DNA of 64,000 nucleotides from NCBI GenBank assembly GCA_013115125.1, contig JABANN010000042.1, positions 1 to 64,000 on the forward strand, in the 5' to 3' direction. The translations under genes were made by a program, and so were the position numbers. This document shows, piece by piece, positions 17,898 to 18,704 of this stretch. The notes under the pieces are model-generated. The model saw only the letters and a list, made by a program, of their open reading frames with translations, did no database searches and had not been told where the DNA came from. Position 1 is the first letter of the stretch. Every line of letters begins with the position of its first letter. The DNA is from Perkinsus olseni. Its lineage: Eukaryota.

Positions 17898-18704
17898 TTA
17901 ATAATACAAAGCACCCTCGACGATATCCTTATCAACACTGAAGGACCGCTGTACCCCCTCTGAAGTCACGTAGGAACCCTCAGCTCCGAAGCTAAAACTG
18001 ATGTGATAGCTGTCGTGAGACAGTTGGGTGAGAACCAGAGCATGCCTTACCGAGTAGGAATGTCCCAAATGTGGCCAAAGCTACAGCGTCGGCCCTGACA
18101 AGAGGGGAGTAGAGGCTGAATCCACTATCATCAGCAGAACCTTCAAGGTAGTGCCACGCAGTAGCAAGATTCGCATGCTCGTGGAGAGCTTCGTTGAAGT
18201 AGGCGAGCACATGAGATGCTATCTTCACAACAAATTACCCCTCGTTGTCGTCAAAGGTGACGATGTCGTTTGGACCGAGAGCTAAGCGTAGGGAGACTTC
18301 ATCAGTACCGAGGCTGAGCTGAGTGCCTCCGGAAGCCTCCATACTGAAACCTGTAGGGCTGGTATCGCCTTCTACTATGTTCCACTGCAACTTCAAAGTA
18401 CCATAGTCACCTAGTTCTGAATCGGGGAGATTGGATTTGATGAGCATCCCGATACTCCGTGCCTTCTCTCCATCGGCGTTGAGCCCGCCCATCATGTAGA
18501 CGCAGGTACCGTCTAGGACCTTGATGTCATCAGAAGTGCTCGCCGTACCGGGGCCACCATTGCAAGTTGCAATTTGCAACCCGGAGGATGGTCAGCAAGA
18601 ACAGTGTAAGACTCGTTTGATAGGGCCATCACCGCGGTGTAGGCCAACAAGAGAAGCCCGCGGTGGAGCCAGTTGAAGCGAACCTTGATTGTGGACTTTG
18701 TCAT
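17898..18704 (-). pseudogene. Secreted 'D(H/Y)PPxC' family member 1, frameshifted
   Basis: Signal peptide, then DHPPGC. A 14-nt insertion at 18566-18579 and further frameshifts near 18230 and ~18000-18070. The family C-terminus (GAEGSYVTSEGVQRSF...GALYY*) is in another frame. Confidence 0.8.

Follow-up and report, generated by a model that had tools for sequence, protein, structure and literature searches.

A 14-nt insertion in a Perkinsus olseni gene, very probably a hAT excision footprint, and similar scars across the genome

Introduction

Perkinsus olseni is an alveolate parasite of molluscs (shellfish). In a 64,000-nt stretch of its genome, the whole of which was analysed and is referred to here as the window, one copy of a Perkinsus-only gene family carries 14 nucleotides that a neighbouring copy lacks. 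An earlier note on this DNA described them as a scar around an 8-mer that knocks out a secreted gene, and hinted that an element had once stood between two copies of the 8-mer. The locus raises the question of what made the insertion and how often the same event has left its mark in this genome. Excision footprints are usually too variable to be recognised without the parent allele; here a single geometry can be counted from sequence.

Results

An insertion derived from one 8-mer

Member 1 of the family reads ATTGCAAGTTGCAATTTGCAAC at window positions 18559-18580. The empty site in member 2, 2.86 kb from the scar, is the single 8-mer ATTGCAAC (21419-21426). Pairwise alignment of the two members, which the earlier note had called for, gives a single clean 14-nt gap with identical flanks, and since a third paralog (51655-51820) is also without the 14 nt, they are an insertion in member 1. 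When the empty-site 8-mer is called T, the scar is T1-7 followed by the reverse complement of T1-8 and then T2-8, a single rule by which all 22 scar bases are regenerated exactly from the 8-mer of member 2. The same sequence can be described as two overlapping 7-1-7 palindromes, 7 bases apart, in each of which the central base is the complement of one of T's two end bases. The parts of the scar and its empty counterpart are as follows.

18559..18580, strand not applicable: 22-bp footprint, net +14 (alignment, rule and contigs of other runs)
18559..18565, plus strand: left target-duplication remnant, bases 1-7 of the 8-mer (rule)
18566..18573, minus strand: the 8-mer in full, inverted; the bases at its two ends are the complemented palindrome centres (rule)
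18574..18580, plus strand: right target-duplication remnant, bases 2-8 of the 8-mer (rule)
21419..21426, plus strand: empty site, single 8-mer in member 2 (alignment and rule)

The clean gap and the derivation of its bases from the paralog 8-mer bear out the claim of a +14 insertion built round an 8-mer, as well as the claim that both states lie within the window, member 2 (and member 3) being empty and member 1 scarred. The core of this particular scar is self-complementary, so that the site taken alone can also be read as a tandem array.

The insertion in other isolates

Four of the 13 listed sequencing runs were compared over the site, as contigs. Contigs of X4, which may be the source, and of X7 and X10, which come from two other samples and studies, span the scar with no other letters and no gaps. 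In X8, a diverged isolate, exactly these 14 nt are absent ("18560 left out 14", depth 113.6 of 113.6). The pre-insertion allele with one target copy is thus found in the paralogs, in X8 and in the relatives P0004 and P0006, which are unshifted: both their ends match member 1, and they remain in frame through the scar site. These sequences are without the 14 nt that X4, X7 and X10 carry, so the insertion is genuine, represents the derived state and varies within the species. No allele filled by an element was seen at this site among the contigs of the four runs. Upstream of the member 1 ATG, the contig from X7 breaks off at 18762 and that from X10 at 18771, which is at most a weak hint of transcription in runs whose kind is guessed or unknown.

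The host gene family and its lesions

The host genes are single-exon, encode about 250 residues and have at least 27 matches in the 39.9-Mb assembly. Sixty-five representatives were found in a large sequence library, and all named matches carry one species label. Searches of the family against Pfam, PDB sequences, Foldseek and ESM Atlas gave no usable match, and a further fold search gave nothing clearer than a match with Z 5.4 and rmsd 5.2 over 135 aligned positions. The structure model of one member (L017:1378-2148) contains a confident all-beta domain (mean pLDDT 87, pTM 0.79), and the hydrophobic stretch is modelled as a low-confidence helix ahead of the folded domain. Such a stretch lies within the first 35 residues of all 14 unbroken members listed (11-residue Kyte-Doolittle maximum 1.4-2.8). 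From this stretch and the fold model it is reasonable to infer that the family members are secreted. The genes and lesions at the locus are listed below.

17898..18704, minus strand: member 1, single-exon gene with three lesions; its family is Perkinsus-only and all-beta and has a hydrophobic stretch at the N terminus
18513..18515, minus strand: premature stop in the shifted frame, 63-residue product (translation of member 1)
18235..18237, minus strand: second lesion of member 1, an in-frame TAA that P0004 and P0006 read through
18066..18073, strand not applicable: third lesion of member 1, a frame change with 7 nt more than isolate X8
20750..21521 (low end approximate), minus strand: member 2, broken; compared with X8 it lacks 29 nt at 21475/21476 and has 19 nt more at 20894
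23285..24061, minus strand: unbroken family member of 258 aa, which adjoins the two broken ones

Translated from its minus-strand ATG at 18704, member 1 departs from the family frame straight after DHPPGC, where the earlier note had placed the frameshift, and meets a stop codon after 63 residues. In reading order the scar comes before the other lesions and, judged by the translation, it suffices by itself to break the gene. The description of the scar as what knocks out the gene therefore holds for the frameshift, but two further lesions leave the attribution unproven; the three lesions occur together in X4, X7 and X10, and the scar need not be the oldest of them. Member 2, which the earlier note used as the control, serves validly as an empty site, although the gene is itself broken. 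It misses 29 nt that are present in member 1, member 3 and the X8 copy, and with them its hydrophobic stretch is lost and its frame stops after 27 residues. The unbroken neighbour (23285..24061) matches a protein labelled Perkinsus olseni. One gene model, P0002 (313 aa, window 18235-21478), fuses the remains of members 2 and 1 across intergenic DNA, which is a warning for annotation.

Genome-wide count of the 22-bp scar

The scar rule imposes 14 constraints and can be used without a parent allele. It was applied to 341,410 non-overlapping bases, comprising the window, 21 long-contig stretches and 20 evenly numbered contigs (the first 10 kb or all of each), a sample of less than 1% of the genome that is not fully random. 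Forty-two exact matches were found, 12 of them within the window, and 70 sites matched with at most one mismatch, against 0 for either count in a Markov resample. Thirty-four other geometries (k 6-10, offsets 0-2) had 0-4 matches each. By unit length, k = 8 gave the 42 exact matches, k = 7 gave one, and k = 9 and k = 10 gave none. Outside the window there were 30 exact matches in 277,410 bases, or about 4,300 per genome, and the evenly numbered contigs alone held 11 in 67,410 bases, or about 6,500 per genome. The genome total is roughly 4,000-6,500 scars, or roughly 100-160 per Mb. The design that the earlier note saw, an insertion based on an 8-mer, stands, but it is no one-off: there are thousands of like scars in the genome. 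The following were located in the window.

17717..17738, 19323..19344, 19568..19589, 22092..22113 and 22809..22830, strand not applicable: neighbouring exact 22-bp footprints (rule)
55010..55031, strand not applicable: second paralog-verified exact +14 footprint in the window (rule and copy comparison)
2868, 3038, 6414, 6605 and 36817: other exact footprints in the window (rule)

At window 55518-55541 there is also a paralog-verified +15 variant of the scar, with one extra inverted base.

Scars are clumped, with 42 of the 70 having a neighbour within 500 nt, and depleted in long open frames, which contain 9 of the 70 and cover 29% of the bases (p 0.001). A mismatch is carried by 28 of the 70. 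Among 50 cores with a forward-reverse-forward arrangement, both centres were complemented in 42 and both uncomplemented in none. One-base-centred palindromes with arms of at least 7 and neighbours 7 apart were found in 42 cases versus 0 in the resample. Only two of the 42 exact scars have a self-complementary core, the scar in member 1 having one of this kind. Comparison of natural copies yielded 71 clean insertion entries, among which +14 was the commonest length (10 entries at 8 distinct sites) and no +7 or +8 occurred; seven of the eight distinct clean +14 insertions fit the rule within two mismatches.

Other joins occur too, as indicated by an excess of longer palindromes (20 with arms of at least 9 versus 1 in the resample). 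A double-transversion +8 form showed no excess (6 versus 3-5 by chance). The +6 pattern was found 262 times versus 70-84, and plain 8-mer tandems 29 times versus 3-5. Forms without P nucleotides (+6, perfect duplication, precise excision and deletions) cannot be separated from ordinary repeats, so the uniformity applies to P-bearing scars. The target bases of the 42 scars show a weak preference: in the symmetrised logo T stands at position 2 in 39 of 84 cases, and T2 and A7 occur jointly in 9 of 42. The Ac-type target preference is nTnnnnAn.

Turning to the host family, its loci, which amount to 88,545 bases with some overlap, contain 41 distinct exact scars. This density is about fourfold that of the sampled background and may reflect targeting or tolerance. 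Five of the 27 family matches change frame at a 22-bp scar, namely member 1 and the four copies placed below, with perhaps one further case.

L009:1897, L013:1437, L020:1426 and L022:655: family copies changing frame at a 22-bp scar
L021:1368: perhaps a further such copy

Resident hAT elements as candidate makers

Eleven matches to the hAT dimerisation domain lie in the genome, and hAT elements with terminal inverted repeats (TIRs), 8-bp duplications and a coding-competent transposase are all present. One whole element (L043) is 4,094 bp long, with an 11-bp TIR and an 8-bp duplication. A second element, collapsed into contig C521, has hAT domains in an open frame of 819 codons, and its ends join two flank pairs. 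In the copy formed by L095 with L099 the TIRs are complete and the 8-bp duplication is clean. In the other copy (L096:1460-1573 with L098:1-140) the element ends are trimmed by 3-4 nt; the left flank is T1-7 plus the reverse complement of T, and the right flank consists of the inverted core, the complement of T1 and then T2-8, with the same 8-mer as on the left. These hairpin halves have the same one-base offsets as the 22-bp scars. The two flanks lie on different contigs and were paired by elimination and by the shared 8-mer; with this inferred pairing, the copy would represent an abortive excision, in which both flank hairpins formed, were opened and were rejoined to the element, and it would tie the scar geometry to a resident hAT family.

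Counted by their ends, the C521 family has two copies and the L043 element one. No abundant non-autonomous hAT family able to explain thousands of events was found. Scans of the sampled DNA for MITEs by TIR plus duplication gave one convincing 8-bp element, and end-pattern searches gave 3 and 2 matches, against 2 and 19 in reversed-pattern controls. In the scans by TIR plus duplication no such structure was seen at the repeat of window 22303-22548, which has 25 genome matches and a depth well beyond that of single-copy DNA. One contig of isolate X8 skips 21998-22423. A 4.5-kb element at L088:4804-9268 has 11-bp inverted ends, a 7- or 9-bp direct repeat and no long ORF.

The genome contains Ku-domain matches (one subunit region) as well as matches to DRMBL, the domain of the Artemis/Pso2 family. 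The Ku-domain matches rule out the idea that a Ku-less organism is forced into microhomology repair, and with both domains present the outcome is not explained by a simple loss of end-joining genes. The available text of PMC8062965 says nothing on end-joining genes.

Other palindromes and open frames

At window 53811-53961, member 4 contains a 21-1-21 palindrome and, with 58427-58497, an exact inverted copy, 71 nt long, of DNA that lies 4.5 kb off. Its one-base palindrome centre fits a hairpin that may have been opened far from its tip and joined elsewhere. An older 33-1-33 palindrome, 88% complementary, lies at window 50271-50337. Long one-base-centred palindromes were also observed inside or beside hAT transposase genes (L041:4495-4541, L042:5238-5292, L042:4038-4086 and L043:2990-3014), one of those in L042 being located at a frame change. 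Elsewhere in the window, a 541-aa ORF (4491-6116) matches Pfam DUF6740 over its whole length, and two related ORF pieces at 39611-42082 have weak TLC-domain (TRAM/LAG1/CLN8) matches below the cut-off.

Discussion

The 14 nt in member 1 are very probably a hAT excision footprint of a stereotyped +14 type. This reading builds on the rule that the sequence obeys, on an isolate with the empty allele, on the excess of one geometry across the genome and on the presence of hATs with 8-bp duplications, and the hint of an element once held between two 8-mer copies was in our judgement right, the scar fitting a hAT excision product. According to the available text of the cited papers, hAT, Transib and MULE transposases leave flank hairpins that are opened by host enzymes (PMC5499845, PMC2921059), and palindromes in Ac/Ds footprints are centred on the complement of the base bordering the element, the ends being joined mostly by microhomology (PMC5873905). 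The two palindromes of the member 1 scar are likewise centred on the complement of the base that would have bordered each element end.

Under this model a hAT-superfamily element would have entered the 8-mer at about codon 43 of member 1 and duplicated it. At excision the transposase would nick one base into each flank and close both flanks as hairpins, and a host nuclease would cut each hairpin open 3' of its tip, at a distance of at least 8 bases. At its start the left 3' overhang would then carry the 8-mer in reverse complement, and the right overhang would carry it as it stands, so that pairing over 8 bases would be possible for every target. Trimming and ligation would leave 7 + inverted 8 + 7 = 22 bp, a net gain of 14. 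The hairpin chemistry at this scar is carried over by analogy from the hAT literature, the annealing step is our proposal, and a particular hAT family can be named only as the presumed maker. Several points tell against the model: the contigs of the four runs showed no filled allele, no plentiful non-autonomous hAT family came to light, hAT footprints in experiments are of mixed length, and the target preference of the scars is weak.

The same hairpin route could be taken by another element that forms flank hairpins or makes 8-bp duplications, such as a MULE, Merlin or P-like element, but we regard this as unlikely. The MULE Muta1 does make flank hairpins, although more than 90% of its excisions in yeast are precise in the available account (PMC5499845). 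The 9-bp version of the scar rule, which matches a MULE 9-bp duplication and does not bear on MULEs with 8-bp duplications, had no match at all. Merlin elements make 8-9-bp duplications, have GG ends and a DDE_Tnp_IS1595 transposase, and have relatives in P. marinus, but the ORFs there come without TIRs or duplications as far as the text at hand goes (PMC8101967). Dada, which is known in Perkinsus marinus, makes a 6-7-bp duplication at fixed small-RNA-gene targets according to the part of the source available (PMC3706591); it was rejected on the 8-bp unit and the diverse targets seen here. MULE, Merlin and Dada all fit the scars less well than a hAT does. The short TIRs and the 7- or 9-bp direct repeat of the 4.5-kb element described above speak for a maker of another kind; hairpin halves were seen flanking just one element, a hAT of the C521 family.

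Explanations that need no element are less probable still. Short template-switch mutations, as described by the four-point model, combine a local inverted copy with a duplication, just as the scar does, and a polymerase that copied 8 bases of the opposite strand and returned, or a fold-back repair, could produce one. The fold-back junctions of member 4 (53811-53961), with their long arms and distant templated piece, indicate that events of this kind may take place in the region. However, such mutations have no fixed length or offsets and usually need a quasi-palindrome, whereas the scars here are fixed. Template switching sets neither the unit at 8 nor both offsets at 1, and the neighbouring geometries are empty; 40 of the 42 cores are not self-complementary, so there is no local microhomology to drive the switch. 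We therefore give this origin very little weight. Slippage, which would have made three 7-mer copies that later acquired G and T spacers through two substitutions, agrees with the report of 18560-18579 by Tandem Repeats Finder as a period-7 array of 2.9 copies. Yet each of the two substitutions would have to be exactly the complement that the hairpin rule predicts, the 341-kb sample contains no exact 7-mer triplet, and the 40 scars without a palindromic core lie beyond the reach of slippage, which is thus not the general cause; even for the member 1 site it is hardly credible. An assembly or sequencing artefact may be practically dismissed. The comparison does rest on contigs rather than raw reads, but the 14 nt stand unchanged in contigs of three runs from three studies and are absent from a fourth, diverged one, while the scarcity of scars in long open frames and their load of mismatches, as expected of ageing real sequence, also argue against an artefact.

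Excision by a hAT, the reading that we favour, is a mechanism of a known kind. Footprints of Ac/Ds in plants, S. cerevisiae and C. albicans resemble the scars here in their palindromic P-nucleotide insertions and microhomology joining, and in yeast their palindrome arms reach 20 nt in the available text (PMC5873905, PMC2921059, PMC1978519). The 8-bp target duplication is also shared, but Ac/Ds products are mixed and mostly short, whereas one 22-bp product dominates the P-nucleotide-bearing scars of P. olseni. The diversity elsewhere is illustrated by 28 types among 128 hAT footprints in Candida, as given in the accessible part of PMC5873905. Hermes, TcBuster and V(D)J coding joints share with the present model a flank hairpin and a host nuclease such as Artemis (PMC5499845, PMC3499496); yet the footprints of TcBuster, like coding joints, vary and show small insertions or deletions, and an inverted copy of the entire target is no fixed feature of them. 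The closest natural parallel is the genome-scale record of DNA-transposon scars drawn from polymorphisms in rice, where in the portion of the report available 8 of 94 excisions were of one simple type and most had deletions or foreign filler (PMC4423477). Unlike the rice scars, those described here can be recognised from one sequence alone. In the mostly open-access literature covered, no dominant 7+8+7 footprint and no Perkinsus scars were described; the 7+8+7 product may nevertheless be among published yeast or plant footprints.

A gain of 14 nt always shifts the reading frame, so that the process removes genes and adds no residues. Plant footprints of +6 and +9, by contrast, can restore function. 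The scars provide a genome-wide record of hAT target choice and a readout of hairpin opening and joining in an alveolate, and they can serve as polymorphic markers between isolates. The locus itself offers a scar in coding sequence whose empty allele is present in a second isolate, a tally of the family members broken alike, and a hAT copy with hairpin halves on both flanks. We tentatively propose, as a possibility that we hold at somewhat less than even confidence, that hAT excision repair in Perkinsus is near-deterministic because the inverted target copies anneal, that each hit-and-run visit brings an obligatory frameshift, recognisable from one genome by itself, and that visits are concentrated round the secreted-type all-beta family, where they would be a main engine of gene loss. 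If this is true, the scars would chart past transposition and the opening of hairpins in an alveolate, in a form that can be dated and counted.
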